The notes beneath the pieces were generated by a model, which searched no databases, was not told where the DNA came from, and saw only the letters and a list, made by a program, of their open reading frames with translations. This document shows, one piece after another, positions 3,768 through 50,018 of a DNA stretch of 64,000 nucleotides. How positions within the stretch are numbered: the stretch's first letter is position 1; each line of letters starts with the position of its first letter. Source of the stretch: Patescibacteria group bacterium (GTDB lineage: Bacteria > Patescibacteriota > Patescibacteriia > JAZDEU01); the NCBI GenBank assembly GCA_042568285.1, contig JBHPIX010000001.1, positions 539-64,538 of the forward strand. Direction: 5' to 3'. Both the position numbers and the translations under genes were made by a program.

Positions 3768-3908
3768 AAAGAATCCCCCTGTCCCTCCCGGTCATCCGAC
3801 AGGACTTCGCCTTTATAAAAGGGGGAACTAGAGGAATTAGTTCGATTAGTTCCTCCCTCTGTGCCTGCCCGCCGAATTGGAGGGAGGGGGGACAGGGGGA
3901 TTCTTTAA
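3768..3908. repeat. 140-bp palindromic element with 20-bp perfect terminal inverted repeats (gaatccccctgtccctccc ... gggaggggggacagggggattc)
   Basis: read directly; internal sub-palindromes; GC-rich island in AT-rich DNA. Confidence 0.6.
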
Positions 3909-3944
3909 ATAAGTTCTTTAAACAATAAAAGATGTAAAACCATT

Positions 3945-4008
3945 AACAAAAAGGTCGTTGTCGCCCGCCGAATCGGCGAGGCTACGGCGGACCAAAGGAG
4001 GATTGATA
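3945..4008 (+). promoter_or_regulatory. conserved 5' leader motif (variant) ggtcg-tgtcgcccgccgaatcggcgaggctacggcggaccaaaggagg preceding pyrC start
   Basis: related to the ggtcgccgtcgcaaagctatggctgacaaaaggag leader found at 3 other genes. Confidence 0.35.
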
Positions 4009-5097
4009 ATGAAAGAGAATCAAGAACTAACAGAAATAATTGTCCCAAAATTTTTTGACGCGCACGCTCATCTGCGGGAAAAAGACATTCAGAATAATAT
4101 ATTATGGATTGTTTTAAAAGAAATGGTTAAATATTGTTTTGGCGCTGTGGTAATGCCAAATCTTTCTAGGCCAGTTTGTAATATAGAAGATGTTGGGTTT
4201 TATTCTAACAATATTAAGGAAAATTTAAAATGGATAAACAGTAGATATTCATCGTCTGAATTCCAAACTGTAATGACAATACAGCTTACTGACATTGAAA
4301 AAAAATATTTATGCAAAGCGACAACTCCAGAAATAATTTTAAAAGCGCATCAAGGCGGAGTAAAAGCGGGTAAAGCGTATCCTGTCGGCGCTACAACAAA
4401 TTCTGCAAGAGGCATAAAGAATTTTCGTTCGCAGGCGATGAAGATGGTTTGGAAAACTATGGAAGATCTTGGCATGCGAGCGCTTCTACATCCTGAACAG
4501 CCCGGCGTTTTTTGTATGGATAAAGAGAAAAAGTTTTTTGATACAGTAAGGTGGTTAGTTGATAAGTATCCAAAACTTAAAATAGTGTTGGAGCATATAA
4601 CAAGCGCTGAAGCAGTTAATTTTGTTAAGCAATTGCCTGATACAGTAAAAGCTACTATTACGGCTCATCATTTAATTTTAACATTAGATGATATTATCGG
4701 TGGCAAATTGCATCCGCATAATTTCTGCCATCCTATACCAAAACGACCTAAAGATAGGGATGCGTTAATTCAAGCCGCTATTAGCGGCAATCCTAAATTT
4801 TTCTTTGGTAGCGATAGAGCTCCGCATTTAAAAAAAAATAAAGAATGCGCCACTGGTTCTGCTGGCGTTTATTCTGGACCTGTTGTTCCTTCAATATTAG
4901 CTAAAATTTTTGCTGATAATTACGCAATTGATAAGTTAAAAGATTTTACTTCTACTTTCGCGTCTGATTTTTATGATATTACTCCTTCTACTAAAACTAT
5001 AAAGATAGTTAAAGAACCGTGGCGGGTTCCTAAAATGTATGACGAAATTGTTCCTTTTCTCGCAGACCAGACTCTTGATTGGCGGCTTGCGGATTAA
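4009..5097 (+). CDS. pyrC: dihydroorotase (type II, PyrC-like)
   Basis: FDAHAHLR metal-binding motif; GSDRAPHLKKNKECATGSAGVYSGP matches E. coli PyrC [25 protein letters not shown]; start taken at MKENQ (track ORF begins 3958 inside the leader). Confidence 0.75.
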   Translation: MKENQELTEIIVPKFFDAHAHLREKDIQNNILWIVLKEMVKYCFGAVVMPNLSRPVCNIEDVGFYSNNIKENLKWINSRYSSSEFQTVMTIQLTDIEKKYLCKATTPEIILKAHQGGVKAGKAYPVGATTNSARGIKNFRSQAMKMVWKTMEDLGMRALLHPEQPGVFCMDKEKKFFDTVRWLVDKYPKLKIVLEHITSAEAVNFVKQLPDTVKATITAHHLILTLDDIIGGKLHPHNFCHPIPKRPKDRDALIQAAISGNPKFFFGSDRAPHLKKNKECATGSAGVYSGPVVPSILAKIFADNYAIDKLKDFTSTFASDFYDITPSTKTIKIVKEPWRVPKMYDEIVPFLADQTLDWRLAD

Positions 5098-5112
5098 GTA
5101 TTTATAAAAAAA

Positions 5113-5148
5113 ATAGGCGATGAATAAATAAATATTCATCGCCTTTTA
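5113..5148. terminator. bidirectional terminator (ggcgatgaataaataaatattcatcgcc + T/A runs)
   Basis: 10-bp stem between convergent pyrC and phosphoesterase genes. Confidence 0.55.
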
Positions 5149-5173
5149 AAATAGCTGGGGAGCTTATAGATTA

Positions 5174-6310
5174 TTAAAGATCGGGAAGTGGATCATAAGG
5201 TATCCTGCCTAATGTTATTTCATATTTTGGCATTTCAATGATAGCGTAATTTCTGCCTTGAATGATATCTCCTGGATTAAGGAATATGACATTTATATCC
5301 TCCTCATAAAAAGCATCGTGAGTAAAACCTGATAAAATAAATTTCACCTGTGAATGTTCTCTTTGGATTTGGCGCGCTAAACAATTCATATCAAACTCGG
5401 ATTTAGATATGAGATCAGATCCTAAATCCCAGTGAACAAAAAATCCATAGCCTTTAATAGGAGTTATTTTGTCTTCTATTTTATGCCAATTTTTAAATGT
5501 TTGTGTTTGTATTTGCCTTTGTATCAAGCTATAGTGTACTTGGAATTTATCTAATTCAGAAATACCTATGTCATCTAAGTTAATATTGCCACAGTGTATA
5601 ATATCTGTGACATTTCTTTCTAAAAAAAGATTTCTTAGTTTTTCCCAAAAAGTAGGATCTTTTTTAGATATGTCCGCGCTATCTGAAATTATAGCTACTT
5701 TTAATTCTGGCGCTATACTCTGGCACATAGGTATTCTGCTATAAATTATTTCCTCTTTTTCAGTATCAATTATGGCATAACCGCAACCGCCTGCTATGCC
5801 CATAGGATTTTCTATAGCGCCGGGATTAATAAATGTAATCAATCTGTATTTAAGACAAATTTGATGGTGAGTGTGTCCTGAAAACATATATCGCACATTA
5901 TCATACTCTTTTCTTATCTCATCGAGCGTTTCCTTTAGTTTTGCTTCAGATCCCCTAAGTAATTCAAAAGACCTTTTATGACCTACATATACTCTAGTTT
6001 TTTCTTTTAATTTGCGCAAATCAACAATCCTCTCATTAGGGTGAGTGAATGTCCAATTATTAGGAGGAGAACAAAATGGTATATTATTCCTGTCTTTTGT
6101 CTTTTTTTCAGACTGGCAAAGTTGTGTCTGCTCATCTGTCAACGCGCAGAATACAGGTAAGTTGCCAAATAATTTTTTATTTACATGATTTTTTGATATA
6201 TCTCCGCAGTGTATAATTATTTCTACTCCATATCTTTTAAATATTTCTATTATATGACGAGTAGCTTTTTGCTTATCTCCATGAGTATCTGAAAGTATTC
6301 CTAGTTTCAT
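5174..6310 (-). CDS. tandem-domain calcineurin-like metallophosphoesterase (two YfcE/MJ0936-type domains)
   Basis: two copies of ILSDTHGD ... IIHCGDI type motifs; start taken at MKLGILSDTHGD. Confidence 0.65.
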   Translation of the reverse strand: MKLGILSDTHGDKQKATRHIIEIFKRYGVEIIIHCGDISKNHVNKKLFGNLPVFCALTDEQTQLCQSEKKTKDRNNIPFCSPPNNWTFTHPNERIVDLRKLKEKTRVYVGHKRSFELLRGSEAKLKETLDEIRKEYDNVRYMFSGHTHHQICLKYRLITFINPGAIENPMGIAGGCGYAIIDTEKEEIIYSRIPMCQSIAPELKVAIISDSADISKKDPTFWEKLRNLFLERNVTDIIHCGNINLDDIGISELDKFQVHYSLIQRQIQTQTFKNWHKIEDKITPIKGYGFFVHWDLGSDLISKSEFDMNCLARQIQREHSQVKFILSGFTHDAFYEEDINVIFLNPGDIIQGRNYAIIEMPKYEITLGRIPYDPLPDL

Positions 6311-6362
6311 CTTTTTTCTCCTTTTGTCAGCCATAGCTTTGCGACGGCGACCTTTTTGGTTA
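6311..6362 (-). promoter_or_regulatory. conserved 5' leader motif (reverse-strand copy) ggtcgccgtcgcaaagctatggctgacaaaaggag
   Basis: reverse complement of cttttgtcagccatagctttgcgacggcgacc read directly. Confidence 0.45.
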
Positions 6363-6434
6363 AAAATATTAAGTGATTGTTGTCGAAAAGAGCATTCGGC
6401 AACAGTTACAATTAGATAAAAAAAAATTGTAAAG

Positions 6435-6560
6435 AGCTATAATAATAATCCAAATCTCCGAATACCCGCCCGAACGACTGAATGGTTCAGTCGGGCAGGT
6501 ATCCGAATGACCCGAAAAATCCCTGCCTGACGGCAGGCAGGCGAATTACAATCCGAATGC
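6435..6560. repeat. GC-rich palindromic repeat block (ccgaatacccgcccgaacgactgaatggttcagtcgggcaggtatccgaatgac...ccctgcctgacggcaggcagg)
   Basis: nested inverted repeats, related tcaggcgggtatc copy at about 16240. Confidence 0.5.
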
Positions 6561-6687
6561 TCATTATATAGATTAGTATAACAGTAATATAAAAAAAAAT
6601 ATTTGTCAATATTGCGCTTATTATAAAAAGATTGTAAGGTTATGGGTAATAATATATAGTTCTTATAATTAGAATTTTACCCTTTTT

Positions 6688-6789
6688 GTCATTCCGCGCT
6701 TGACGCGGAATCTAGTGTTAAACTTGATGTTAGATCCCGCCAGTCTCGACTAGCTCGAGCCTAGGCGGACATCAAGTGCGGGATGACAA
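6688..6789. repeat. composite palindromic repeat R-family copy (gtcattccgcgcttgacgcggaat ... tccgcctaggctcgagctagtcgagactggcggg ... gcgggatgaca)
   Basis: same modules recur at 13486, 35552, 51626. Confidence 0.7.
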
Positions 6790-6850
6790 TTCCCCATTAT
6801 AGGAGGACTGAACATTGATAATTAAAGAGTAAAGGGATTTTTTTAAAACA

Positions 6851-6892
6851 GAACCCCACCCTGTCCCTCCCCTCAAAGGGGAGGGAACTATG
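6851..6892. repeat. GC-rich hairpin element copy (ccccaccctgtccctcccctc-aaa-ggggagggaactat)
   Basis: family member, upstream of pyrD-pyrK. Confidence 0.6.
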
Positions 6893-6902
6893 TGCCAAGG
6901 CA

Positions 6903-6957
6903 TAATTTTAAAAAAGGTCGCCGTCGCAAAGCTATGGCTGACAAAAGGAGAAATTAG
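6903..6957 (+). promoter_or_regulatory. conserved 5' leader motif ggtcgccgtcgcaaagctatggctgacaaaaggag + ATG
   Basis: identical 35-nt string also at 8745 and reverse at 6311. Confidence 0.45.
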
Positions 6958-8586
6958 ATGAACAAAAATTTTTGGAAACCGCCGTATTATTATTTTGACA
7001 AAAAAGTGAGAGGACCTTTTACTATACCAGCAGGTATAGTAACAACAAGAAAGGAGATTATTGAACTTATAGCATGGGAAATTCCAGAAGTTGGCATATT
7101 AACAACAAAGAGCACGAGTTTAAACCCGCGCGAGGGAAAAAAGGAGCCGATTATAGGATATGCTGGTCAATATTCTTTATTTAATGAAGTGAGATTAGCT
7201 AATCTGGGAGCAGAAAAAACAGCTGAATTTTTATCTAAACTAAATATTCCAAAAAATAAAGCTATAGTTGGCTCTGTTATTGGAAGTACTCCCGAAGAAG
7301 TCAAATCTGTCGCAGTAATATTGGCGCCGTATGTTGATGTTATTGAAATCAATGTGTCTTGTCCGAATGATGAAAAAGCAGGATTGGCAGTAGGTCAAGA
7401 CGCTATTCTTGTCCATAAAATAGTAAGCGCGGTAGTTGATGCTGTTAAACCAAAACCTGTAACAGTAAAGATCGCGGCAAGTTTGGATATTTATTCTGTA
7501 GTAGTGGTTTCTAAAGAGGCAGGCGCTTCTGGAATTGTAGCGATAAATACAGATGGGCCTAAGGAATATAACCATAATGGACATTTAGTTTTGAAAGGAG
7601 GAGAATCTGGCGAAAAGATTTTTAAGCTGCTTTTAAGAACCGTTAAAACATTGCAAGGGCTTCTTTCTGTTTGTCCTAATATTTATCCTTGCGGAGGAAT
7701 TGGATCAGCAAGACAAATACGGACATTAGTTGAAGCTAAAGCGCAGTTTGTAGGAACAGGGATTGGTACAGCTATTGGGGGTATGCGCTTGCAAGAAAAG
7801 AAATTGTTTTTTAACATATTGATGGATGATCTGCGAAAGGGGAAAAATAACGCAAAAGAATTTCGGCACGATTTTTCTGAAATGAAATATAGAAAACGTA
7901 CAGTTACGGGGATTAAAGAAATTTCAGAAGATGTTTTTACCATTACATTAAACGGAACTATTAAAATAAATCCAGGTCAATTTATTTTTGCAATGATTCC
8001 TGAAAAAGGAGAGAAGCCATTTTCCGCGCTGGATGTAAATAGTAAAAGTTTTTCTCTGTTAATTCAAAAAAGGAGATATTTTACTAAGGAATTGTCAGAG
8101 CTTAATAATGGAGATGATATTTATATCAGAGGACCGCATGGAAGATCTCCGCGACTTCAAGGTAGAATTTTATTAGTTGGAGGAGGAACTGGAGTAGCTG
8201 GATTATATCTTTTTGCTAAAGAATATAAAAATACATTTGCCATTTTAGGAGCTAAAGAAAAAATTCCTTATTTTGGCATGTTTTCTACTTTTTGCAAGAA
8301 AGTCTTACCAATTATTGAAAATCAGGAAGAAAGGAGAAGATTAGTTACAGATTGTTTAGATTATTTTATAGAAAGTATTAAACCAGATTATGTGTTAAAT
8401 TGCGGTCCGAAAGAGATGGTGATGAAAGCTATAGAGATTGAAAGGAAGTATTTATCTGAGGATAAAATTTTATCTGCAACAGAGGAGATTACTAAATGTG
8501 GCGAGAGTGTTTGTGGCAGTTGCGCTACTCCAAAAGGGTATTGTAGTTGTGTTGATGGACCGTTTATGACGGCGGATAAGATATAA
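6958..8586 (+). CDS. pyrD: dihydroorotate dehydrogenase 1B catalytic subunit fused to PyrK-like electron-transfer (FAD/NAD-binding, Fe-S) subunit
   Basis: N-terminal DHODH TIM-barrel motifs (INVSCPN, AINTDGP); C-terminal ferredoxin-reductase-like part with LLVGGGTGVAG and CGESVCGSCATPKGYCSC cluster. Confidence 0.7.
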   Translation: MNKNFWKPPYYYFDKKVRGPFTIPAGIVTTRKEIIELIAWEIPEVGILTTKSTSLNPREGKKEPIIGYAGQYSLFNEVRLANLGAEKTAEFLSKLNIPKNKAIVGSVIGSTPEEVKSVAVILAPYVDVIEINVSCPNDEKAGLAVGQDAILVHKIVSAVVDAVKPKPVTVKIAASLDIYSVVVVSKEAGASGIVAINTDGPKEYNHNGHLVLKGGESGEKIFKLLLRTVKTLQGLLSVCPNIYPCGGIGSARQIRTLVEAKAQFVGTGIGTAIGGMRLQEKKLFFNILMDDLRKGKNNAKEFRHDFSEMKYRKRTVTGIKEISEDVFTITLNGTIKINPGQFIFAMIPEKGEKPFSALDVNSKSFSLLIQKRRYFTKELSELNNGDDIYIRGPHGRSPRLQGRILLVGGGTGVAGLYLFAKEYKNTFAILGAKEKIPYFGMFSTFCKKVLPIIENQEERRRLVTDCLDYFIESIKPDYVLNCGPKEMVMKAIEIERKYLSEDKILSATEEITKCGESVCGSCATPKGYCSCVDGPFMTADKI

Positions 8587-8744
8587 AACAATGAAGAATA
8601 TTTATTATTGTTTTAAACGCCCCGCTGATTAACGCGGATATTAAGCCGCAAGAAATGCTATTGAATTTTCGTTAAATTTTTGAGGCGCGGCTTGACGCTG
8701 ATATACGCGGATATGTGACAGTAATTGTAACTGGTGAGTTAACA

Positions 8745-8789
8745 AAAGGTCGCCGTCGCAAAAGCTATGGCGAACCAAAGGAGAAAGAA
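8745..8789 (+). promoter_or_regulatory. conserved 5' leader motif ggtcgccgtcgcaaaagctatggcgaaccaaaggag
   Basis: third forward copy. Confidence 0.45.
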
Positions 8790-9872
8790 ATGAAAGAAAT
8801 GCCATCAGTATTAGTAGCAATGGTAACACCATTTGTTGATATGACTTGTCAATTGGATCATCCTGTAATAAATTTCAAATTGTTTAAAAAACATATTGAA
8901 TTTTTATGCTCCCAAGGAGTTGGACTACTTCCAATGGGAACAACAGGAGAGTCTCCTGTTGTAAGTGACATTGAGCATAAGAAAGTAATACAAATAACAC
9001 AAGAGGAGGTTTGCAAAAAAAAATCTGATATTTTTGTGTTAGCGGGAACAGGATCTAATAGTACATGGGAAGCAGGGCAATATACAGCGACAGCTAAAGC
9101 TTGCGGATGCGACGGGGCGTTGCTTGTAACTCCATATTATAACAAGCCTGCTTCGGAGCAGATGCTTAAAGAATATTTTATTCCTATTGCTAAGAAATTT
9201 CCTGATATGCCGATAATACCTTATCTTATTTCAGGACGGACAGGCAGTGTGTTTGTTCCACCTGATTTAGCAATATTAGTTGACCAGTGTCCTAATGTAG
9301 TCGCTGTAAAGTACGCTGAACCAGAACTTCATAACGCGAGAGAAATTCGTAGGTTGCTGCCTGATCCTGAAAAATTTGGAATTCTTTCAGGGGATGATAA
9401 TAGGACTTTGCAAATCATCACTGATACTAACATTAAAGCATGCGGAGTTATTTCGGTCATGGGGAATATTGTTCCAGCGGCTATCAAGGAAATGTGCGAT
9501 TTAGCTTTGGTAGGCAGAAAAGTTGAAGCTTCTTATATTCAAGAAAAATTAAAGCCATTGTTTGGATTAGTTAGTGTTAGCGGTTCAAGAACAATTGATG
9601 TTCCCGGAGATAAATTATATTATTTGGATAAATATCCAAATCCCGGACCTATTAAAACAATAATGAATGGGCTTGGAATAAATGCAGGTCATTGCGCTCC
9701 GCCTCTTGGGAAGATGTCATTGTTGTTGGTTCAAATTATTAGAGATATTGTTCGCAAAGTTTGGAGAACATACCCTGAGTGTTTACATCCTCTTGCTGAT
9801 TTTTATGATTTGGATATAGAGGAGCGATTAGAAGATGACGATGTTTGGCATCAGTTGGCTTATGAGGAATAA
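8790..9872 (+). CDS. DapA-family aldolase (4-hydroxy-tetrahydrodipicolinate synthase / N-acetylneuraminate lyase family) with C-terminal extension
   Basis: GTTGESP motif, YYNKP, candidate Schiff-base K in VVAVKYAE; start at MKEMPSV. Confidence 0.65.
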   Translation: MKEMPSVLVAMVTPFVDMTCQLDHPVINFKLFKKHIEFLCSQGVGLLPMGTTGESPVVSDIEHKKVIQITQEEVCKKKSDIFVLAGTGSNSTWEAGQYTATAKACGCDGALLVTPYYNKPASEQMLKEYFIPIAKKFPDMPIIPYLISGRTGSVFVPPDLAILVDQCPNVVAVKYAEPELHNAREIRRLLPDPEKFGILSGDDNRTLQIITDTNIKACGVISVMGNIVPAAIKEMCDLALVGRKVEASYIQEKLKPLFGLVSVSGSRTIDVPGDKLYYLDKYPNPGPIKTIMNGLGINAGHCAPPLGKMSLLLVQIIRDIVRKVWRTYPECLHPLADFYDLDIEERLEDDDVWHQLAYEE

Positions 9873-9911: not shown

Positions 9912-11090
9912 ATGGAAAAAGATATGTATAAAGAATTAGGAGTTGATTCTGACAAGTCAGATATAGCTAAAACATTTGATGAAGTTAATGATAATGACTT
10001 CCCAAATGCTTTTTGCAATATGCTTACTGATCCAAAAAATTCTGATATGTTAATTATTAAACATGCGGACGGGGTAGGGAGCAAAAGTGTTCAAAGGTAT
10101 TTGCATTATTTACAAACAGGCGATAAAACAATTTTTCAAGGAGACATTTTTGACGCGGTTTCTATGAATACAGGCGACATAGCAGCAGTTGGGGCTGTGT
10201 TTTGCCCTTATATCGCTACTAACACAACAGCTATAAATGCTATAAATGTTAACAAAAATCTTATAAAAGAACAGTTTGCCATAGGAATTAAAAAAATAAA
10301 AGAGCTATACAGAAAATATTGCTTTGACTTTTTCTGGCTTGGAGGAGAAACTGCTGATTTGCCTGACCAGACTTCTTCTTATATTTTAGATGTTGATATT
10401 TATACTAGAGTTGAAAGACAAAAAGCTATCATAGGAAATGTTGAGCACGACGATATTATTTTTGGTTTTTCAAGTGGAGGCAGAGCTATCTGGGAAGAAA
10501 AAAAGAATTCAGGGCAGATGTCTAATGGTCTTACTATGAACAGAATCGCGCTTATGCATTCAGATTATACTAAAAAATATCCTTTTTTATTTCGCAATGA
10601 AGCTCCATGTCGTGGCAAATATGAAGTTTATGATTATTTAGATGATTTAGGCATGACAGTTAGCGATGCGCTTACTTGTCCAACTCGGCAATGGGCGATT
10701 GTTGTAAAAATGCTTATTGAAGAACTTGAGAAAAATAATGCTTTGCATCTATTGCACGGAATGTGCATGAATACAGGAGGAGGGAACACTAAGATTAAAA
10801 ATATAGGCAATAATATTAAGTATGTTAAAATACTTCCAAAGCCATTGCCGTTATTTAGATTAGTTCAATCTGAAACAGGCGAATCTTGGAAAAATATGTA
10901 TCAAGCCCAGAATATGGGAATAGGATTTGAAGTTGTTGGTTCTGCAGAAGGCGGATTTTTAAAAAATGCAATTGAAGAAGTTTCTAAAAAAACAAATGTG
11001 AGAAGTTATCTTTTGGGAAAATGTTATAATTCACCAGAAGATAAAAATCAAGTTGTTCTTGATACTGATTATGGGATTTTTGAGTATTGA
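9912..11090 (+). CDS. PurM-like (AIR synthase-related) protein
   Basis: LGVD...DGVGSK resembles PurM GVD...DGVGTK N-terminal motifs; family assignment only. Confidence 0.45.
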   Translation: MEKDMYKELGVDSDKSDIAKTFDEVNDNDFPNAFCNMLTDPKNSDMLIIKHADGVGSKSVQRYLHYLQTGDKTIFQGDIFDAVSMNTGDIAAVGAVFCPYIATNTTAINAINVNKNLIKEQFAIGIKKIKELYRKYCFDFFWLGGETADLPDQTSSYILDVDIYTRVERQKAIIGNVEHDDIIFGFSSGGRAIWEEKKNSGQMSNGLTMNRIALMHSDYTKKYPFLFRNEAPCRGKYEVYDYLDDLGMTVSDALTCPTRQWAIVVKMLIEELEKNNALHLLHGMCMNTGGGNTKIKNIGNNIKYVKILPKPLPLFRLVQSETGESWKNMYQAQNMGIGFEVVGSAEGGFLKNAIEEVSKKTNVRSYLLGKCYNSPEDKNQVVLDTDYGIFEY

Positions 11091-11188: not shown

Positions 11189-11387
11189 GTCTATAAAGTT
11201 CATAAAGTCTATAAAGTCGTAAAGTCTGTAAAGAAAGTATGTTGTCATTCCGCACTTGATGCGGAATCTAGTTGTTTAAAAGTGTATCTTAACTAACTGG
11301 ATCCCGCATAATCGTTGCTACGATTTGCGGGATGACAAAAGGGAAGTGTCAAGCCTCGGCGAGCCGGCGGGTAAGCACGGGATGACA
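11189..11387. repeat. composite repeat: tandem ~10-mers (ctataaagtc x5) followed by R-family palindromes; left inverted copy flanking the peptidase gene
   Basis: reverse complement of block at 12346-12486. Confidence 0.65.
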
Positions 11388-12313: not shown

Positions 12314-12345
12314 TAGTAAATATAATCAATTTAAATTTTACTTAA

Positions 12346-12486
12346 TGTCATCCCGCACTTGATGCGGGATCCATTTCTGGATTCCGTGTCAAGCACGGAA
12401 TGACATAAACATATACTATTTCTAATTTCTAAATTTTCGACTTTACAGACTTTACGGACTTTCGACTTTACGACTTTATAGACTAA
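12346..12486. repeat. composite repeat right inverted copy (R-family hairpins + gactttatag tandem 10-mers)
   Basis: inverted partner of 11189-11387. Confidence 0.65.
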
Positions 12487-13485: not shown

Positions 13486-13577
13486 CACTTGATGTCCGCC
13501 TAGGCTCGAGCTAGTCGAGACTGGCGGGATCTAACATCAAGTTTAACACTGGATTCCGCGTCAAGCGCGGAATGACA
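13486..13577. repeat. R-family composite palindromic repeat
   Basis: gtcatcccgcacttgatgtccgcctaggctcgagctagtcgagactggcgggat...gcggaatgaca. Confidence 0.7.
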
Positions 13578-13616
13578 AAAAGTATAAGTTATTTTATAAC
13601 AATAGAGCAATATAAT

Positions 13617-16701: not shown

Positions 16702-16776
16702 GTGGAACCTGATTTGCAAGATAAAAAGTGGCAAGTAATAAATGAGGCATGTAGAAATGCTATGTAATAATGAGGT

Positions 16777-16840
16777 TGTCATCCCGCGCTTGACGCGGGA
16801 TCCAATAGTGAGTAGATCCCGCATCAAGCGCGGGATGACA
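16777..16840. repeat. R-family double hairpin (tgtcatcccgcgcttgacgcgggat ... atcccgcatcaagcgcgggatgaca)
   Basis: in groES-groEL spacer. Confidence 0.7.
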
Positions 16841-16912
16841 TAAACAAAATTTAAAATTAAAAATTTTTAAGTAATTAGGTGGGTGATAAAAAATTAGTCA
16901 ATTAGTTCCCCT

Positions 16913-22628: not shown

Positions 22629-22988
22629 TTATTGAATTATAACATAATTATATCCACATTTTGGACATCCTATATGTCTTGAATTAACTCTCCAAAGTGA
22701 ATAAATTATACCTACTGGAAAAAATAAAATCCAAAGAAATAATTCCATTAAAAAACTTCCTTTTGTTATTTTTTTTCCATTCCCTTCATACTTACAATTT
22801 GGACATTTTATGATTTGCATATCTTTTTTGTTAATTAAGTTAATAAATATATTATATGTTATTTTCGTATTCATATTTAACCATTCCGTAATCGTTGCCC
22901 CACTCCTGTTTTGCTCTTTCCATAATTTCTGGATATGCTGTTTGTTTGTTAATCCATTCATAATCCTCAACTTGATTTTCATATTCAT
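22629..22988 (-). CDS. small zinc-ribbon membrane protein (likely shorter, starting at MQIIKCPNCK)
   Basis: CPNCKYEG ... TM ... CPKCGYNY; track ORF overlaps the neighbouring gene 3' end. Confidence 0.3.
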   Translation of the reverse strand: MNMKIKLRIMNGLTNKQHIQKLWKEQNRSGATITEWLNMNTKITYNIFINLINKKDMQIIKCPNCKYEGNGKKITKGSFLMELFLWILFFPVGIIYSLWRVNSRHIGCPKCGYNYVIIQ

Positions 22989-23949
22989 ATTTAACCATTC
23001 CGTAATCGTTGCTCCATTCTTGTTTAGCTCTTGTCATAATCGCTGGATACGCTGTTTGTCTGTTAATCCATTCATAATCTTCAACTTGATTTTCGTATTC
23101 ATATTTAATCATTCCGTAATCATTGTCCCACTCTTGTTTTGCTTTTGTCATAATCGCTGGATATGCTGTTTGTTTAACAATCCAATCGTATGCTTCAGTC
23201 TGATTTTCTACCTCATAATTTACCATTTCGTAATCATTACCCCATTGTGCTAAAGCTTCTGCCCTAAAAATTTCTATTATCTTATCTCTGTCGCTCTTTG
23301 GTTCTATTATTGATACAGTTGGTGTAGGTTCTGGCGTTGGTGCTACTGTTGGTTGTGATGTTGGCTTTGTTGTTAGTATTGGTTTTATAATCGGTTTTGG
23401 TGTCAATACTGGAGTCGGCTCTGGTATTGGTTTTATTATTGGTGTTATTATTTTCTTTTTTGGTTCTTCAGCAACACTTTCATAAATTTGCTCTTTGTAT
23501 TTTTGAAAAATTGGAACTTTATTAAGGTCTTTATTAGTAATACCCAGTCCTTTTTCTCTCATAATCCTAAAAGCCTCATTTGGTCTGCTAAGATAATATC
23601 CTTTTAAATCTTCTGGATAAACATAATAAGCTTCTCCTTTACTTTCTACATCTAATAATATTTTACCAGCTAATCTTTCAGGAAAGGAAGAATTAAGATA
23701 TTTTTCTAATTCAATATGCTTTATTCCAAGTCCTAATTCCTGCATAATCTTAAAAGCGTCCGCAGGTCGTCCTAAATATGCCCTTTCTTGCGTGTCTGGG
23801 TCTATATACCACCCTTGCCCTTTATCTTCTACCTGTAATAAAATTTTACCTTTTAATCTACTTGATATATTTTGAGCATTAGAAAAATTGAAAGGAATTA
23901 AAAGTAAAATGAAAGTTAAAGTTGCTAACATTGTAAATTGTTTTTTCAT
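22852..23949 (-). CDS. secreted repeat protein (2 N-terminal + 4 C-terminal near-identical repeats, Pro/Thr-rich linker)
   Basis: signal peptide; four ~33-aa repeats AKQEWxNDYGMVKYEYENQVEDYEWI encoded by ~100-bp DNA tandem repeats. Confidence 0.5.
   Translation of the reverse strand: MKKQFTMLATLTFILLLIPFNFSNAQNISSRLKGKILLQVEDKGQGWYIDPDTQERAYLGRPADAFKIMQELGLGIKHIELEKYLNSSFPERLAGKILLDVESKGEAYYVYPEDLKGYYLSRPNEAFRIMREKGLGITNKDLNKVPIFQKYKEQIYESVAEEPKKKIITPIIKPIPEPTPVLTPKPIIKPILTTKPTSQPTVAPTPEPTPTVSIIEPKSDRDKIIEIFRAEALAQWGNDYEMVNYEVENQTEAYDWIVKQTAYPAIMTKAKQEWDNDYGMIKYEYENQVEDYEWINRQTAYPAIMTRAKQEWSNDYGMVKYEYENQVEDYEWINKQTAYPEIMERAKQEWGNDYGMVKYEYENNI
22860..23250. repeat. tandem ~99-bp DNA repeat x4 inside CDS
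   Basis: near-identical blocks starting ttcgtattcatatttaaccattccgtaatcgttgc. Confidence 0.8.
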
Positions 23950-24157
23950 AGTTTTTTATAATAGCTTAATTTTGGTTATTACTGGCGGAAAATATAAAGC
24001 CCGCCGCCAGCGATGGCTTACACCACCCATATTCCTTTCGGAATATGACCTGCTACAGGTGCTCTGACGACGAGCTTTCTATCCTGTAGCAGGTTTTTTT
24101 GCCATACCTCGCAGATTGACTACGAGGGTTAGGCAATTAAATTGTTAATGGTTTATG

Positions 24158-31159: not shown

Positions 31160-31323
31160 TATGGAATCGCCCGCTAATACAGCGGGCGCTCGCCGTGGTG
31201 GCGAGCGAACCCCCATAACCAGCTTAGAAGGTTTGCCTCTCCGTAGCTTTAGCGTAGGCGGGTTGGTGTTCTATCCTCCTTCGCTAAAGCTACGGCGGAC
31301 AAAGTCCGTTGAACTACGAGCGC
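31160..31323 (-). pseudogene. degenerate tRNA-Arg(TCT)-like sequence with three insertions (D-loop, anticodon stem, T-loop); 3' acceptor strand missing
   Basis: blocks GTAGTTCAACGGA, GGATAGAACACCA, CCTTCTAAGCTGGTTATGGGGGTTCG align to tRNA-Arg; inserts at 31236-31266 and 31281-31308 are mutually complementary over 14 nt. Confidence 0.45.
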
Positions 31324-35114: not shown

Positions 35115-38100
35115 CTATCCGTCTTGAGCCCGTCTTTTCCAAACCAAGACTCCCAGCACGACAGCTAAAATCCCAACCGCTATAGATAAAACCCACTGTA
35201 ATATTTTTTTTATGCCGATAGCGCGATCAGCGTCTTTTTGTAAATTTTCTATTGTTTGCGCCAGTTTTATTTCAGGCACTTCCTCAACTGTTTCTTGCTC
35301 AGAAATTTCATCTACATTTAAAGAAATTTCAATATCCTCTTCGCCTTCCAAATCTACGCCGATAACTTCTGTCTCCCATTCGCCGTCTTCGGGATCTTCA
35401 ACAACCACAATTGCTCCCATGCCGTCCTGCATGGGCTCGCCTGAATATTTTTTTCCAGACGGACTTATTAAAGCAAACTCAATAACTGGTTTGTCTTCAG
35501 CCATCGCTGGCGAGATATTCCAGAGCCTATCAGACTCTCTAAAGTGCTTTTTGTCATTCCGCGCTTGATGTCCGCCTAGGCTCGACTCCGCCTCGGATCG
35601 CCGAGTGCGAGACGGGATAGTCGAGACTGGCGGAATCCAGTTAGTTAATCTGGATTGCAAAATTTCTGGATCCCGCGTCAAGCGCGGGATGACATTCCCA
35701 GAATACTCTGATAGTAACGCGGACCCAAACCTCATAACCCCAGTTAAAATTTGCCTGCCCCCGCTTCTAACCGCCTCCGCTGTTTGGCGCGCAGTTTCTT
35801 CTACTCTCTCACCAGTTTCAATAATGGTTTTAGCGGCTTCTTCCGCTATATTTTCAGCTGTTTCAACAGCTTGCTCTGTTTTTTCCTGAATTGCGTCCCG
35901 CATCGCTTCGCCAGTTTGACTTGTCGCCTGTACTACAAATTTTTTTGTTTTCTTAACTCCTCTAACGAGAGTGGTCTTTGTTGTATTTGCTACTTGCCTA
36001 AAAATATTCACCATTTCATTGGATATTCTATCAGCTTCTCTTGTAAATTCATAAGCTAAATTACCTCCTTTTACAATAGCATTATCAATAGAAGCTCCCA
36101 ACGGTCTCATTGACTGATAAACTGATTCCAGATCAATAATCTCTTGGGTTCCCGGAATACGGATTACTGAATGGCAATCACCGATAGTGGCTTCGCACCA
36201 ATCACTCGCGGTATTATGATAAATTGCGAACATCTTTCCTTCTGAATATATACCGAAAATCGCCTTGCCATAAAGTCCAGCGATATTAATGCCGTCAGTC
36301 GCTAATTTTAATTTGTCATTAATATCTCTGGCGAAATCGCTAACTTTTTCAAAAACATCGCCAAAAATAGTTTCCTTGCCTAATAAACTGGCGCCCCAAT
36401 CTACTGCCGCGCCAGCTAATCCAAGCTGATCCATTAGCTTGCCAAAATTTGTGGTAGTATCAATTAATTGGTTGCCCATATTTTTGCTTTTATCAAAAAT
36501 ATTGTCATTATTGTAAACAAAATTTTTCTCTGCTATTAATGCTTCTCTGATTTGATTAATTTTTGTTTGATATCCATAATAAGGAACATCGCTATTTGGC
36601 ACAGCTCCAACAAATTTATTTTGATGCCATATAGCAACTTGATAATCAACCATTTGGTTAGAAACAGCTTCTTTAAAATTCGTCATAAAAGCTAATTTAT
36701 ATAAATTTTTATATTTATGTTTTACAGTCTTTTCTAATTCATCCATATAGCGCTTCAAACTTCCCTGCGAGTTTTCAAACGCCCTGTCAGCTTCCATTTT
36801 AAAATCCGCGATTTGCGCGGAACTTTCTATTCCCAAACTATTCAATACAGATTCCAAACTATGTCCTTCCAACTGTCCTCCTACTAATTCAGTAGCGGCA
36901 GTTAATTTATCCGCGACACCTCTTAAATTTACATTAAGTTTTCCTGACAAGCTATTTAATCTTTGGTGCGCGACAATCTTCGCTTTAAACAATAAGAACG
37001 TTCTCATCAACTGCCATGTCGCTTCTCCAAGAACATCCGCCATTTCTGTTCCTGCCTCAATAGTCGCAACTCCTAATTTTTCTATGGCAATAGAACTTTT
37101 TAATAAAGCGATTGCTTTTACTTTATTGCCCCCGTCCTTTTCTTCTTCTACGGAAATCATTAAGGTTCTATGCATATCATGCGGGCTAAAATTACCTTCC
37201 AGTCCAGGCACATATTTTTTATCATTTAATGGCATTATACTTCCATAAATATTGCTATACTCATTAATATATTCAATTACATTTTCTTCCATCGCGCATT
37301 TTTTTTCCCAGCAAAAATCAGACTTGCATTGCGAACTTTCAGAACATGCGTCGCCATTATTAAACAATAAACATTCTCTTCTTGTTGTGGCGCAGTCAGG
37401 ACATGAACAATCTTCATTATCCTGGCATTCTCCATCACCGCACCAAGTGTATCCTAGGGGTCTGCATACAGACTCTACGCAATTATTTGATGCGCAGTCT
37501 TGTTGCTCGTCACAACTTTGTCCGTTTTCTTTTTTAACTTCTTCTTCCTCTCGCTCTTCTGCACCTTCTTCCACTTTTAATTCATCTTCTACTCCATTCT
37601 CATCGTTCCCCTCTTGAGAGGGGTCAGGGGTGTGTTCTGTTTCAGCAGAAACACTTACCCTTAATTTTACACCTATAGCTTCAATTGTAGTGTAATGATA
37701 GAATTTAACTGTATTAGATCCAGCTTGAAAAAACTTTGTGGCGTCAATCCATTTATTTAAACCGCTTGCTTCTGTCACATTTTTTCCAAGCGAAGCATCA
37801 TAAACTTGTCCGTTTGACGATGAATATGGAGAAAATTCCCAAACTGTTTTATCATTCACTTTTACATATCCATTTTTTCCCATATATTTTTTAACATAGT
37901 TAGAACTGTTCTTAGCATAATGGGTAATTTCTACTTTGGTAAACCGGCTCGGAAGATTAACTGTCCATATATGAGGCGCGCGCGAAGCTGGAATAACTCC
38001 TCCGTCTTTCATTTCTCCACTTGATCCAAATGACATAGAATTTATTGCTGTAAATTCATCATCCTCGCACTGTCCGCAATCTTTTACGCAATCAACGCAT

Positions 38101-40034
38101 GTTTCTCCGCTATCGCAAAATGTGTCTCCACAATATGTTTCAGAGCTTCTGCATTTACTGTGAACACAATGGTTATTTTTGCATTCTGAATTAGCTCCGC
38201 ATGTTTCTCCAGTATCTTTCAATGAACATGCTCCACAATCAGAAGTACAGCTTGAACAAGACTCTCCTCTATCGCAAAATGTATCGCCGCAATATGTTTC
38301 AGAGCTTCTGCATTTGCCATGAACACAATGCCAATTTTTACATTCCCCGCTATTAACGCAATCAGAACCGTCTGGCTTACTGCATAATCCGCAATCATCA
38401 GAACAATCATCGCATGTTTCACCTGTATCGCAGTTACTGTCTCCGCAGTATGTTGAAGAGCTTCTGCATTTTCCGTGAACACAATAATTGTTCGCGCATT
38501 CTGAATTAGCGTTGCATACAGCTCCATCAATTTTTAATGAACATGACCCGCAGTCGGAAGTACAGCTTGAACAAGATTCGTCGCTATCGCAAAATGTATC
38601 CCCGCAATATGTAGAATTTTCGCGACATATATTATGAACACAATAATAATCCCCGCAATCAATCTGCGAAAGGCATTGCTCTCCTATTCCAGCTCGGCAG
38701 TTTCCGCAGTCCTGCTGGCACACATCGCACTCTTCGCCATTGTCGCAATGACCGTCTCCGCAGTATGGGGATGAAGATCTGCACCTGCTATGCAAACAAT
38801 ATGGACTTTCGCACTCTGAATTGTTTGAGCAAACCTCGCCGTCTGCTTTTAAATTTAATTCGCAATAATAATTAGAAGTATCGCATAAATAACCGCTATC
38901 GCAATGATCATTTATTGAGCAACATGTTTTGCCAGCTTCGCAACATACATAATTTGCGCAATTTTCTGATTTGCAAGTTGAAGATGCATAGCAGACTTCT
39001 CCAATTTCTTTTCTTGTATCCACTTTTTCAACGCAATATTTATTATAATGGCATTCATATCCAGTTGAACAATCATCATCGTCATAACAGCACGTTCCAG
39101 AATCACAACATTTTCCATTGTTGCAGTATCCACTAGCGCATTCTTCTGAAGATGCGCAGACAGAACCATTTACTTTTAAGTATGTATACTCGCATAAATA
39201 ATTTGAATTGCATAAACCATTATTGCCACAATCATTATCAGTTTCGCAACACCATCCAACGCCTCCGCAGCATATTTTTTTTGAATAATCGCTTCCAAGC
39301 ACATAATCACAAATACTTGATTCGCATTCGCTATATTGAGAGCAAGCTTCGCCATTTGCCTTTTTAACTTTATCTTCGCAATAATAATTATCATTGCAAA
39401 TAGTATTCAATCCAAAAAGATCTCCGCAGTCGTTGCTTGTCTTGCAACATTCTTTGCCAGCTTCGCAACAAGTTCTATGCTGGCAATTATCTGATACGCA
39501 GTCTGTGTTAGAGCTACAACTCCCGCCATTCGCGGTCGTAGCGTCTGATTCGCAATAGCATCCGCCGGATTCGCCATATAGGGTGCAAGTAGCCGCGTAT
39601 GGACAATGGTCATTATTGAAACAGCATACGCTTCCCGTTTTACAGCATATATTATTACTGCAATTTCCTGATTCACATTCTGCGTCTTCGCCTGAATCGC
39701 ATGTCATAGAATTTATTACACTGCCGGCGCAATCTTCTGGACAAATGGTATATCCTTCATCGCAATAGCCGTCTCCGCAAAAATAATAATGATCTCTGCA
39801 AATATTATGGATGCAATAATCCGCATCGCAGTCCCATGATGTTGTACAGCTTTCACCCAGAGCGTTCGTCGCAAAAGAAACATTCGCGAACAGCGACATT
39901 GCGAATATTGCAAAAACAAAAACAGCGATAAACTTTAATGAACTAAAAGTACAATCGCTGTTTGCAGATAACTGTTTTACGAAATGCCACAATTTTTCGT
40001 AAAATGTTTGTGGCGTTTTGATAGAGTGTTTCAT
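35115..40034 (-). CDS. giant (1639 aa) Cys-rich modular surface protein with N-terminal signal/TM and C-terminal TM anchor
   Basis: dozens of ~45-aa Cys-rich repeats (GxxCxxxxxCxSxxC...CC), a second repeat class (YCGDxxCDxGExCxxCxxDCGxC), ~700-aa helical region, C-terminal hydrophobic helix. Confidence 0.6.
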   Translation of the reverse strand: MKHSIKTPQTFYEKLWHFVKQLSANSDCTFSSLKFIAVFVFAIFAMSLFANVSFATNALGESCTTSWDCDADYCIHNICRDHYYFCGDGYCDEGYTICPEDCAGSVINSMTCDSGEDAECESGNCSNNICCKTGSVCCFNNDHCPYAATCTLYGESGGCYCESDATTANGGSCSSNTDCVSDNCQHRTCCEAGKECCKTSNDCGDLFGLNTICNDNYYCEDKVKKANGEACSQYSECESSICDYVLGSDYSKKICCGGVGWCCETDNDCGNNGLCNSNYLCEYTYLKVNGSVCASSEECASGYCNNGKCCDSGTCCYDDDDCSTGYECHYNKYCVEKVDTRKEIGEVCYASSTCKSENCANYVCCEAGKTCCSINDHCDSGYLCDTSNYYCELNLKADGEVCSNNSECESPYCLHSRCRSSSPYCGDGHCDNGEECDVCQQDCGNCRAGIGEQCLSQIDCGDYYCVHNICRENSTYCGDTFCDSDESCSSCTSDCGSCSLKIDGAVCNANSECANNYCVHGKCRSSSTYCGDSNCDTGETCDDCSDDCGLCSKPDGSDCVNSGECKNWHCVHGKCRSSETYCGDTFCDRGESCSSCTSDCGACSLKDTGETCGANSECKNNHCVHSKCRSSETYCGDTFCDSGETCVDCVKDCGQCEDDEFTAINSMSFGSSGEMKDGGVIPASRAPHIWTVNLPSRFTKVEITHYAKNSSNYVKKYMGKNGYVKVNDKTVWEFSPYSSSNGQVYDASLGKNVTEASGLNKWIDATKFFQAGSNTVKFYHYTTIEAIGVKLRVSVSAETEHTPDPSQEGNDENGVEDELKVEEGAEEREEEEVKKENGQSCDEQQDCASNNCVESVCRPLGYTWCGDGECQDNEDCSCPDCATTRRECLLFNNGDACSESSQCKSDFCWEKKCAMEENVIEYINEYSNIYGSIMPLNDKKYVPGLEGNFSPHDMHRTLMISVEEEKDGGNKVKAIALLKSSIAIEKLGVATIEAGTEMADVLGEATWQLMRTFLLFKAKIVAHQRLNSLSGKLNVNLRGVADKLTAATELVGGQLEGHSLESVLNSLGIESSAQIADFKMEADRAFENSQGSLKRYMDELEKTVKHKYKNLYKLAFMTNFKEAVSNQMVDYQVAIWHQNKFVGAVPNSDVPYYGYQTKINQIREALIAEKNFVYNNDNIFDKSKNMGNQLIDTTTNFGKLMDQLGLAGAAVDWGASLLGKETIFGDVFEKVSDFARDINDKLKLATDGINIAGLYGKAIFGIYSEGKMFAIYHNTASDWCEATIGDCHSVIRIPGTQEIIDLESVYQSMRPLGASIDNAIVKGGNLAYEFTREADRISNEMVNIFRQVANTTKTTLVRGVKKTKKFVVQATSQTGEAMRDAIQEKTEQAVETAENIAEEAAKTIIETGERVEETARQTAEAVRSGGRQILTGVMRFGSALLSEYSGNVIPRLTRDPEILQSRLTNWIPPVSTIPSRTRRSEAESSLGGHQARNDKKHFRESDRLWNISPAMAEDKPVIEFALISPSGKKYSGEPMQDGMGAIVVVEDPEDGEWETEVIGVDLEGEEDIEISLNVDEISEQETVEEVPEIKLAQTIENLQKDADRAIGIKKILQWVLSIAVGILAVVLGVLVWKRRAQDG
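35552..35694. repeat. R-family composite repeat inserted in-frame inside the giant protein CDS
   Basis: translated as VIPRLTRDPE...NWIPPVSTIPSRTRRSEAESSLGGHQ, the same peptide as in the MiaB-like gene. Confidence 0.8.
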
Positions 40035-41565: not shown

Positions 41566-41605
41566 ATTGACGCGGTGTTGTCATCCCGCACTTGATGCGG
41601 GATCC
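41566..41605. repeat. R-family single hairpin (tgtcatcccgcacttgatgcgggat)
   Basis: read directly. Confidence 0.65.
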
Positions 41606-41609
41606 ATTC

Positions 41610-42554
41610 CTAAATATCATAGAGCAATTTTTTAAAGTTCATTGCTTTCCAATAATCAAAGATCCGATCAAAAGAAGGGGATAATGAATCTTTTATATGT
41701 TCTGTTGTTTTTATAAATATATAATGTCTCCCTGTTTCAGTATGATAAAATAACCATTCAATGCCACGTCTTAATGCTTCCGCAACAAGTCCGCATATTA
41801 TGCCATTGCAAAATGCAACGATCCACAATAATATCACATTTTCTATAAAAGGAAGTAAAAAATACGCTAAAGCAACTGTTATTGCCATTGTTGTAAAAAG
41901 GCAAATCCAGTAGCCAGATAATTTTACTGCTTTATAAATAGCTTTTATGCTGATGATATACGTTATTGAAAGTAATGCAAATAAAAGGAATATGAATCCT
42001 GTAATACTAAAATAAATAAATCCAAAATATGCCATTATTATCCAAAAAATTTGAACTCTAAATAAGCTAATTATATCGCTAAAAAAGAACTTTAATGGGT
42101 TTATAGATTGATAGTTTTTAAACCTTTGGTTAAAAGGGCTTTTTTCTTTAGAAAAAAGAAAAGACATAGGGAAGCTACTTAAGATAAAACAATTTATATA
42201 ATCCCATCTGCCAACAATAAAAAAACGACGAATAAACAAATAACTAATCAAAAAGACAATAATAACAGCAAATGCCCGAATTATCCAAGCATGATTTTTA
42301 TTAACGGCTTGTTTTGCCTCACCTGTTTTTATGCAAACATAGTTCAAACTTTTTTTGCCGACCAGAACGCTTTTTTTATAAATAGCAATTATATTGCAAT
42401 AAATTTCCTGATAGCACCAACCGATTAACACTCCCAGAATAACTCCAAATCCTAATAAATAAAAATTTTTACTATAACCGAATGCCAATAATCCAACAAA
42501 ACCTCCAAGAAAAGCTCCTAACACATTTTTTTTCGTAATTTCTTTTATTTCCAT
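41610..42554 (-). CDS. hypothetical multi-pass membrane protein (314 aa)
   Basis: many hydrophobic helices. Confidence 0.4.
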   Translation of the reverse strand: MEIKEITKKNVLGAFLGGFVGLLAFGYSKNFYLLGFGVILGVLIGWCYQEIYCNIIAIYKKSVLVGKKSLNYVCIKTGEAKQAVNKNHAWIIRAFAVIIVFLISYLFIRRFFIVGRWDYINCFILSSFPMSFLFSKEKSPFNQRFKNYQSINPLKFFFSDIISLFRVQIFWIIMAYFGFIYFSITGFIFLLFALLSITYIISIKAIYKAVKLSGYWICLFTTMAITVALAYFLLPFIENVILLWIVAFCNGIICGLVAEALRRGIEWLFYHTETGRHYIFIKTTEHIKDSLSPSFDRIFDYWKAMNFKKLLYDI

Positions 42555-49747: not shown

Positions 49748-49751
49748 AAAA

Positions 49752-49813
49752 TGTCATCCCGCGCTTGACGCGGGATCCATGAATTTAGATCCCGCGTCAA
49801 GCGCGGGATGACA
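49752..49813. repeat. R-family double hairpin abutting the stop codon of the preceding gene
   Basis: tgtcatcccgcgcttgacgcgggatcc...gatcccgcgtcaagcgcgggatgaca. Confidence 0.7.
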
Positions 49814-50018
49814 AAAAGGATTTTTATTGCATTTTGAGCGAAACGTCGCCTTTTGTCATATACCAAAAAGCGTCTAAATGGGCGCTTTTTTTGTGCCATT
49901 GACAAATTATCCTTAATATGCTAATTTATAATATTGCTAATTGACAACTAAACAACCGTCCGATTTCGGACTATATTAACAATTTTTTGCCAAATATGAT
50001 GGCGAGGAGGAAGAAAAG

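Follow-up and report, generated by a model that had tools for sequence, protein, structure and literature searches.

In a 64-kb stretch of a Patescibacteria genome (the window, to which all in-genome counts refer; GC content 32%), four neighbouring transcription units, including those of pyrC and pyrD, carry the same short GC-rich hairpin sequence directly upstream of their Shine-Dalgarno (SD) sequences. Our best reading is that this element is a new form, lying close to ribosome-binding sites, of the familiar short palindromic repeats and is not a regulatory RNA for pyrimidine synthesis. We put the probability at roughly one half that it is a palindromic repeat, similar to the repetitive extragenic palindromes (REPs) or to "GC clusters", that was copied into ribosome-binding regions and has a generic structural effect at most. 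The element is repeated, it folds as a hairpin beside an exposed SD, it is present in patches between relatives, it also lies at unrelated genes and at sites other than ribosome-binding sites, and it is nested with other repeats.

Four copies in front of ribosome-binding sites

An earlier note, made from the sequence alone, had described a near-identical leader of about 39 nt ahead of the start codons of four neighbouring genes, and had proposed a motif search and an RNA structure prediction. The four copies are real, and none is expected by chance. Their common core is 35 nt rather than 39 nt, while the two divergently oriented copies match at 43 of 43 positions if the flanks are included. 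The exact 35-mer GGTCGCCGTCGCAAAGCTATGGCTGACAAAAGGAG occurs twice (0 expected, from 100 shuffles), and a degenerate pattern finds all four copies (0 expected). Two covariance models (CMs), run over the 64 kb with filters off, give the four copies 52–68 bits and the next best match 13.6 bits. Neither these models nor a regular expression found a further full copy in the 64 kb. The four hairpin and SD modules are:

3953..4000, + strand: pyrC copy, found by the degenerate pattern and the most diverged, with a 13-nt nested hairpin at its apex; CM 55 bits; predicted fold -25.7 kcal/mol, SD unpaired
6318..6352, - strand: phosphoesterase copy, exact 35-mer; CM 65.8 bits; folds as a hairpin
6916..6950, + strand: pyrD-pyrK copy, exact 35-mer; CM 65.8 bits; predicted SD pairing probability at most 0.14
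8748..8783, + strand: DHDPS-family copy, found by the degenerate pattern; CM 68.2 bits; predicted fold -15.6 kcal/mol (z -3.2), SD unpaired

All four copies end in AAAGGAG, as the earlier note had it, and this lies 6–8 nt ahead of an ATG: 4009 for pyrC, 6310 on the reverse strand for the phosphoesterase, 6958 for pyrD-pyrK, and 8790 for the DHDPS-family gene. The DHDPS-family copy differs by 1 inserted A and 3 substitutions, and the pyrC copy by 3 substitutions and the 13-nt apical insertion. Called open reading frames (ORFs) do extend into the motif (3958.., 8715.., and 5174..6334, the last of which starts at an ATG within it). Because ORFs run through the repeat, the mis-called gene starts are explained; the start of pyrC needed a small correction, to the ATG given above. 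Differences in loop length break any common reading frame, so the element itself is not coding.

The element folds as a hairpin beside an unpaired SD

All copies fold as one stem-loop, GGUCGCC-GU-C-GC-[loop]-GC-U-AU-GGC-(bulge)-GACC, with the SD 1–4 nt further 3'. The pair that had been named as the halves of the imperfect palindrome (gccatagc / gctatggc) is one sequence on two strands; the true arms are GGTCGCCGTCGC and GCTATGGC(N)GACC. The core of the element is about 27–30 nt, with a C-U mismatch and a neighbouring G-U pair as constant features. The bulged base varies (U, A, G, GU, or none, the last in contig L010), and the loop is AAA, AAAA, UAAA, or UAAG, except in the pyrC copy, which has a whole extra hairpin instead.

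Predicted minimum free energies (MFEs) range from -11 to -26 kcal/mol across copies. The predicted structures leave the SD unpaired in the window copies, with a pairing probability of at most 0.14 in three of them; the phosphoesterase copy is partly paired (about 0.5 for the first two G's of the SD). Structure prediction gave no alternative fold within 3 kcal/mol that sequesters the SD in the window copies, and no U-tract follows the hairpin in these copies. Owing to the G-U pairs, the hairpin is about 3 kcal/mol more stable when folded from the sense strand than from the antisense strand. The spacing between the arms varies (13, 14, 15, or 27 nt), and this variation, together with the apical insertion, points to a hairpin in RNA (or in a single strand) and not to an operator in duplex DNA.

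In the pyrC copy, none of the three stem substitutions disrupts a pair (two turn C-G into U-G and one turns G-U into G-C); this is weak evidence that the hairpin is under selection. Across eight distinct sequences, 87.5% of cells pair, and shuffle controls were unremarkable. Of the 11 stem pairs, 3 are invariant, 4 vary on one side, and 1 changes on both sides, the last owing to diverged copies (v1, see below). There is little covariation: the stems are kept in sequence, and changes are otherwise one-sided and preserve pairs.

Relatives and copies in other genomes

The closest contig that we found, L002, encodes PyrDK with 70% amino acid identity and has the same gene order (pyrDK, DHDPS family, 392-aa protein). 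In L002, the pyrDK and DHDPS leaders have a plain AAAGGAG and the hairpin is absent at both orthologous sites; the covariance models match nowhere in this contig. The earlier note had suggested that an operator or leader RNA coordinates pyrimidine genes, and had said that random occurrence in coding regions, or lack of conservation in the orthologous leaders of relatives, would speak against a regulatory element. Both were found: the orthologous leaders of the nearest syntenic relative are without the motif, and the motif overlaps the 3' ends of coding regions in three other contigs (L010, L011, and L042). It also precedes unrelated genes elsewhere, and all of this counts against a coordination of pyrimidine genes.

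Upstream of pyrDK, AT-rich blocks are about 88–90% conserved between the window and L002, and the GC-rich segments between them differ:

6571-6643, 6806-6830, and 6892-6905 of the window, with 183-253 and 272-312 of L002: conserved AT-rich blocks, TATTTGTCAATNTTGCGCTTATTATAAAA..ATTGTAAG; CTGAACATTGATAATTRAAGAG

A block of about 70 nt that is shared with L002 sits about 300 nt upstream of pyrDK. These AT-rich blocks are candidates for a promoter, operator, or leader signal, which would imply a pyrDK leader of about 300 nt. This leader looks like conserved AT-rich islands that were broken up by lineage-specific GC-rich inserts.

Further copies came from single-shot scans with a strict pattern. 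Among 185,579 species-representative genomes, there were no true matches (the sole match arose by chance in a coding region of a high-GC Planctomycetota). Among 241 million metagenome records, the same pattern, which demanded an SD but not the correct spacing to an ATG, found three genuine copies, in contigs L007, L010, and L011 (GC 0.36–0.41). All three read AAAGGTCGCCGTCGCTAA(A/G)GCTATGGCG(G)ACC. The genes that follow them are unrelated: a 79-aa membrane ORF, an 86-aa Cys-rich ORF, and a 12-codon ORF, respectively. In L010, the hairpin lies within the 3' end of the upstream ORF, and there is an ATGA stop/start overlap. In L011, a 31-aa hydrophobic ORF (748-843) that is well initiated, with a good ribosome-binding site, ends in KGRRR* and has its stop codon in the hairpin loop. 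Downstream of it in L011 (1000-1080), a tRNA-like sequence is interrupted by two small GC hairpins (CCGCCAAAGGCGG and CCCGCCTCTGGCGGG), and ARAGORN calls no tRNA there. L010 was considered as a phage and rejected: its only PHROG match is a HicA-like toxin.

A ZIP transporter gene adjoins the copy in L007, and we used it to fetch relatives with 81–88% identical ZIP proteins. Most of these have neither the 79-aa ORF nor the hairpin. In L027, the ORF is retained (79% identical) and is preceded by a diverged member of the hairpin family, "v1" (GAGTCGCCTTCGTGAAACTTTGGCGGACCAAAGGAGG), and L007 has v1 plus an extra canonical hairpin. This is a clean 32-nt presence/absence difference, with flanks that are about 90% identical. 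The predicted fold of v1, in contrast to that of the canonical form, sequesters the SD (GCCUUC with GGAGGU):

69-110 of L027, and 1920-1957 of L007 on the - strand: v1 hairpin leader of the 79-aa membrane-protein ORF, nearly identical in both lineages

On the predicted fold, the v1 leader is a candidate translational riboregulator in its own right. We also considered a link to metals, as the ZIP gene lies beside the L007 copy, dihydroorotase is zinc-dependent, and one of the downstream ORFs is Cys-rich. This was dropped because a terminator belonging to the 79-aa ORF precedes the ZIP gene and because the orthologous ZIP loci have neither the ORF nor the hairpin. The neighbourhood of the ZIP transporter is highly variable: in Parcubacteria bacterium Gr01-1014_13 (L017, 9596-10744), the gene 25 nt upstream of it encodes a Fur-family regulator, and a DUF2238 gene takes this position in other relatives.

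Two scans of viral sequences that demanded an SD gave no matches. A viral scan without the SD gave 29: 28 lie in coding DNA of high-GC phages and are due to chance, and one, in the IMG/VR viral contig L042 (GC 0.49), is genuine. There, an identical 24-nt core, GTCGCCGTCGCTAAAGCTATGGCG, closes the gene for a PEP-CTERM protein (PF07589; 5529-6275) that ends in ...LAARRRRR*. Its Arg codons and TAA stop make the 5' arm and loop of the hairpin, with the stop in the loop, and no SD follows. We consider this hairpin to be probably homologous to the others; the 24-nt identity includes the same mismatches, and an origin by chance seems unlikely. Its position at this gene end hints that the 5' arm (CGY repeats) may derive from an Arg-rich C-terminal coding sequence. 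BLAST against a phage collection returned only chance-level fragments, and a profile of the translated motif (40 columns, three frames) against a 5.8-billion-protein database yielded 74 word-sharing candidates, none with E<=10.

A partial copy and other GC-rich repeats in the window

The window holds several further families of GC-rich hairpin repeats, and the element is mixed with some of them:

3963..3978, + strand: apical insert CCCGCCGAATCGGCGA in the pyrC copy, a piece of another GC-rich repeat family of the genome
31281..31300, + strand: partial fifth copy TCGCTAAAGCTACGGCGGAC, the 3' two-thirds of the motif, not at a ribosome-binding site
6686-6727, 11242-11283, 12345-12418, 13550-13590, 16776-16853, 35667-35707, 41578-41619, 49751-49826, 51625-51666, 53394-53434, and 57103-57143: examples of sites of the TGTCATYCCGCRCTTGAYGCGGRATC(CA) family

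The repeat GCCCGCCGAATYGG has five sites: the apex of the pyrC copy, 3867, 35037, 43501, and 40713 (- strand). The partial copy has no mismatches to the 20-mer consensus of the external copies (0 such matches expected by chance). It is one arm of a perfect 14-bp palindrome whose other arm is at 31241-31254, and it belongs to a chain of five GC-rich hairpins (31165-31312) that is bounded by the 3' end of a 673-aa gene on one side and by two tRNA genes on the other. This chain has an MFE of about -71 to -73 kcal/mol and z of -5.4 to -6.5 on either strand, and it has no match in Rfam. A 9-mer complementarity search of the window for an antisense partner gave only the palindromic partial copy (31241-31300).

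The TGTCATYCCGCRCTTGAYGCGGRATC(CA) family is abundant and often occurs as inverted pairs; its core, GTCATYCCGC, has 20 occurrences in the window and 2 in L002, where the sites are different. Another repeat family, ACACACCCCTAACCCCTCT..AGAGGGGAAC, is at 439, 16956, and 54561. Direct repeats of AAAGG or CCAAAGG flank most copies of the hairpin element; they overlap the stem and the SD, and they are missing from v1 and L042. The window also has tandem repeats within coding regions, at 22816-23267 (114-nt period, 3 copies) and at 38073-38816 (156–159-nt period, 5 copies, with many TGY (Cys) codons when read on the reverse strand).

Genes behind the copies

4009..5097, + strand: pyrC, dihydroorotase of the dimer type (TIGR00856, 306.8 bits, above cutoff)
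5174..6310, - strand: tandem calcineurin-like (YfcE family) phosphoesterase (PF12850 twice; TIGR00040)
6958..8586, + strand: pyrD-pyrK fusion, dihydroorotate dehydrogenase and electron-transfer subunit (PF01180; NF000796 and NF005574 on the two halves)
8790..9872, + strand: DHDPS/DapA-family gene (PF00701; TIGR00674 under cutoff)
9912-11090: PurM-like gene, after the DHDPS-family gene (weak TIGR00878 match for the 392-aa protein)

The last two genes probably share a transcription unit. The PyrD-PyrK protein is 100% identical to an NCBI protein from "Patescibacteria group bacterium" and has 653 homologues, mostly from Parcubacteria; most of the 120 that were listed are about 45–48% identical to it. 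The fusion is widespread across Parcubacteria/Patescibacteria. Some of the NCBI records are titled "tRNA-dihydrouridine synthase", probably an annotation error that stems from a weak match to the Dus domain.

A dispersed repeat or a regulatory element

The stems are conserved in sequence and the apex is variable or nested, orthologous sites are occupied in patches, copies in different genomes are nearly identical, there are recombined partial copies, and the genome is crowded with repeats. Together, these features indicate a dispersed palindromic repeat, and the pattern is not that of a riboswitch or of an ancient operator. The element would then be one of the modular palindromic repeats that are scattered through, and fill, the AT-rich intergenic DNA of this genome, and its copies would have been placed directly 5' of AAAGGAG in the four transcription units by insertion, by local gene conversion, or by both. 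If it is transcribed within the 5' untranslated region (UTR), it would form a stable sense-strand stem-loop just upstream of a single-stranded SD. There it might be a barrier to 5'-end decay or processing, or it might insulate the SD from the other GC-rich repeats of long leaders. Because the SD beside the stem-loop stays single-stranded, any effect would be generic and structural, as opposed to the sensing of a metabolite or a pathway. Both the mechanism of copying (insertion or local gene conversion) and the effect on the mRNA are inferred. Of the earlier suggestion of a shared cis-regulatory element, what survives is a shared element in four adjacent leaders, best read as an RNA hairpin by the SD, without the coordination of pyrimidine synthesis.

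Several observations weigh against a dispersed repeat. Simple dispersal would not by itself put four copies exactly at SDs, all sense-oriented, in transcription units that adjoin one another. Every full copy of the window borders on an SD with the same orientation and the remaining ~59 kb has none, a clustering that is more easily squared with a local regulon than with random dispersal. Also, pyrC and pyrD encode consecutive steps of a pathway. The substitutions in the pyrC copy that preserve pairing, and the G-U pairs that suit only the sense strand, suggest selection on an RNA hairpin. Four full copies and one partial copy in 64 kb are low for a REP-like family (the other repeat families of the window have 7–20). 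No candidate transposase was seen, and a crude regular expression for the HUH motif, applied to window ORFs of at least 100 aa, was negative. There is no unambiguous target-site duplication, and the AAAGG flanks are partly due to the stem itself and to the A-rich context. Finally, since the metagenome pattern demanded an SD, the adjacency of the L007, L010, and L011 copies to SDs is partly ascertainment. If the element is nevertheless a dispersed repeat, its placement at SDs may come from local gene conversion (as the 43/43 identity could reflect), from a preference for AAAGG, or from retention of copies that were useful. Such a hairpin could protect the 5' end, set a boundary for processing, or insulate the SD from G/C-rich neighbours.

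We consider it a tentative possibility that the hairpin is a translational operator, bound by a trans-acting RNA-binding protein (or a small RNA) that blocks or promotes 30S binding, so that pyrC, pyrDK, the DHDPS/PurM-like pair, and the phosphoesterase would form a post-transcriptional regulon. The fixed distance to the SD, the shared orientation, the four adjacent units, and the lack of another full copy in 64 kb would all be accounted for. So would the conservation of the non-Watson-Crick C-U mismatch and the G-U pair, the structure-keeping substitutions in the pyrC copy, and the tolerance of an apical insertion, which is expected of an RNA stem-loop and not of a DNA operator. The related v1 leader, which is predicted to sequester the SD, is conserved between the two lineages of L027 and L007. 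However, the hairpin is absent from the orthologous leaders of L002, the downstream genes in other contigs are unrelated, and other copies lie at the 3' ends of genes and in the chain of hairpins beside tRNA genes. The bulged base has no fixed identity (U, A, G, GU, or none), no regulator emerged as a candidate, and the motif is extremely rare in the genome and metagenome scans. If the operator were real, this would be the first candidate post-transcriptional regulon in the phylum, joining dihydroorotase, dihydroorotate dehydrogenase, and three uncharacterised enzymes.

It is unlikely, in our judgement, that the element is a non-autonomous mobile element that homes to ribosome-binding sites. 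Such an element would insert at the AAAGG of the SD and leave AAAGG on both sides, with the SD still functional, and it would pass by horizontal transfer between Patescibacteria and other hosts, or phages. Translation-initiation regions would be rewritten in this way, and a resident copy could become an operator for a host factor.

We also doubt that the hairpin is a neutral by-product, that is, that the leaders were homogenised by local gene conversion or by duplication of repeat DNA with no effect on expression. The 43/43 identity of the two divergent copies, the location of all four within 5 kb, and the abundance of similar repeats in the genome are what this would predict. But near-identical sequence persists in several distant genomes, substitutions keep pairing, and the position relative to the SD is consistent; and a hairpin of -11 to -26 kcal/mol at 1–4 nt from an SD is unlikely to be without any effect.

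It is improbable that the element acts at the level of DNA, whether as a transcription factor's palindromic operator or as a mobile promoter cassette. An imperfect inverted repeat does lie between the upstream region and the gene, and identical upstream sequence does precede non-homologous genes. Of the earlier note's proposals, a transposed promoter cassette comes closest to the evidence, but the copied unit is a hairpin and ribosome-binding-site module, in which no promoter is evident: there is no -35/-10 within the shared 43 nt, and a promoter/terminator scan is at background. Also, the spacing of the half-sites (13, 14, 15, or 27 nt) and the bulge vary, the G-U pairs make a good hairpin on the sense strand only, and the block conserved in L002, ~300 nt upstream of pyrDK, suggests that the promoter or control region is elsewhere.

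Largely refuted, and the least probable of all, is a metabolite riboswitch, or a PyrR-type or start-site-dependent attenuator, for pyrimidine synthesis: although pyrC and pyrD are among the four genes and the 5' UTR holds structured RNA beside the SD, the SD is not sequestered, the window copies have no competing fold within 3 kcal/mol, the hairpin is absent from the pyrDK leaders of relatives, and it precedes non-pyrimidine genes. Scanning the window with Rfam 15 at gathering thresholds gave only LOOT RNA and 3 tRNAs, and a scan of 3800-9000 at E<=10 gave nothing that overlaps the motif. Regulation by PyrR, which had also been raised, finds no footing either, as the PyrR box (ARUCCAGAGAGGYU) has just two matches in the window, each with 2 mismatches, at chance level and far from the pyr genes. 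As to an aptamer, it is the stems that are conserved in sequence, while the apical loop and bulge vary and the closest relative has no hairpin. As to an expression platform, there are no mutually exclusive folds with the SD and no terminator U-tract, and only v1 (L027) is predicted to sequester the SD. Nor do the genes make a coherent set: pyrC, pyrDK, a DHDPS-like gene, a phosphoesterase, three unrelated small ORFs, and the 3' end of a PEP-CTERM gene. (The LOOT RNA (RF03000) is a full-length match at 24012-24135 on the - strand, with 97.5 bits against a gathering score of 46.4.)

If the element is a dispersed repeat, then the reduced, AT-rich genomes of Patescibacteria carry modular families of GC-rich palindromic repeats, which can land on translation-initiation regions and be common to distant genomes. 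This would be a caution against naming every shared 5' hairpin a riboswitch, and it would offer an entry point to the spread of repeats in organisms with few known mobile-element enzymes.

Comparison with known systems

In Escherichia coli and Salmonella, pyrC and pyrD are controlled by nucleotide-sensitive selection of the transcription start site, and a leader hairpin that includes the SD blocks it in the longer transcripts. The element resembles these leaders in being a 5'-leader hairpin directly upstream of the start codons of pyrC and pyrD. It differs in that the SD is 3' of the stem and predicted to be unpaired, in that genes other than pyr genes have it too, and in that relatives lack it. 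RNA thermometers (ROSE or fourU) occlude the SD, which is not occluded in the window copies. Stabilisers in 5' UTRs (the 5' hairpin of ompA, and the aprE and ermC leaders of Bacillus subtilis) act from the very 5' end of the transcript and do not depend on a conserved sequence. Like them, the element is a stable stem-loop just upstream of an accessible SD and could protect against RNases that depend on the 5' end; unlike them, the pyrDK copy probably has the transcription start about 300 nt upstream.

Putative mobile promoters also place identical sequence upstream of non-homologous genes, within and between genomes, but here about 43 nt are shared, as a hairpin close to the ribosome-binding site with no recognisable promoter. 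Integron attC sites do not fit, as the hairpin ends carry no GTTRRRY/RYYYAAC and the genes are housekeeping-like and in mixed orientation. Compared with miniature inverted-repeat transposable elements (MITEs), the whole element is a single inverted repeat.

The GC clusters of yeast mitochondria (for example, GC42) are present sporadically, vary mostly in their loops, and merge as palindromic modules (PMC4478555). The resemblance is by analogy only, as those are in a eukaryotic organelle and this element is in a bacterium and close to ribosome-binding sites; also, GC clusters have a short purine (AG) target duplication, and no clear target duplication is demonstrable here. In both cases, GC-rich hairpin elements of about 30–45 nt lie in an AT-rich genome, occupy homologous sites in patches, and have loops that are more variable than their stems, and palindromic modules merge and shuffle.

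The REPs and REPINs of proteobacteria differ from the element in several respects. They number tens to hundreds per genome, and the copy number here is very low (five in 64 kb); they lie at the 3' ends of genes, and the full copies here are directly 5' of SDs. No RAYT (Y1 transposase) was found in the window by the crude HUH regular expression, no conserved 5' tetranucleotide like GTAG is defined here, and the host is a Patescibacteria. What the element shares with them is its form and its distribution. Both are short (20–40 nt), GC-rich, imperfect palindromes with mismatches or bulges, and the element has four full copies and one partial copy, all intergenic in the window. Both are dispersed in intergenic DNA and are, or in the case of the element probably are, transcribed as hairpins in mRNA, with G-U pairs that favour the transcribed strand. 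REPs occupy intercistronic junctions, sometimes as inverted doublets, which the partial copy at 31241-31300 resembles, and like the element they are present in some relatives and absent from others.

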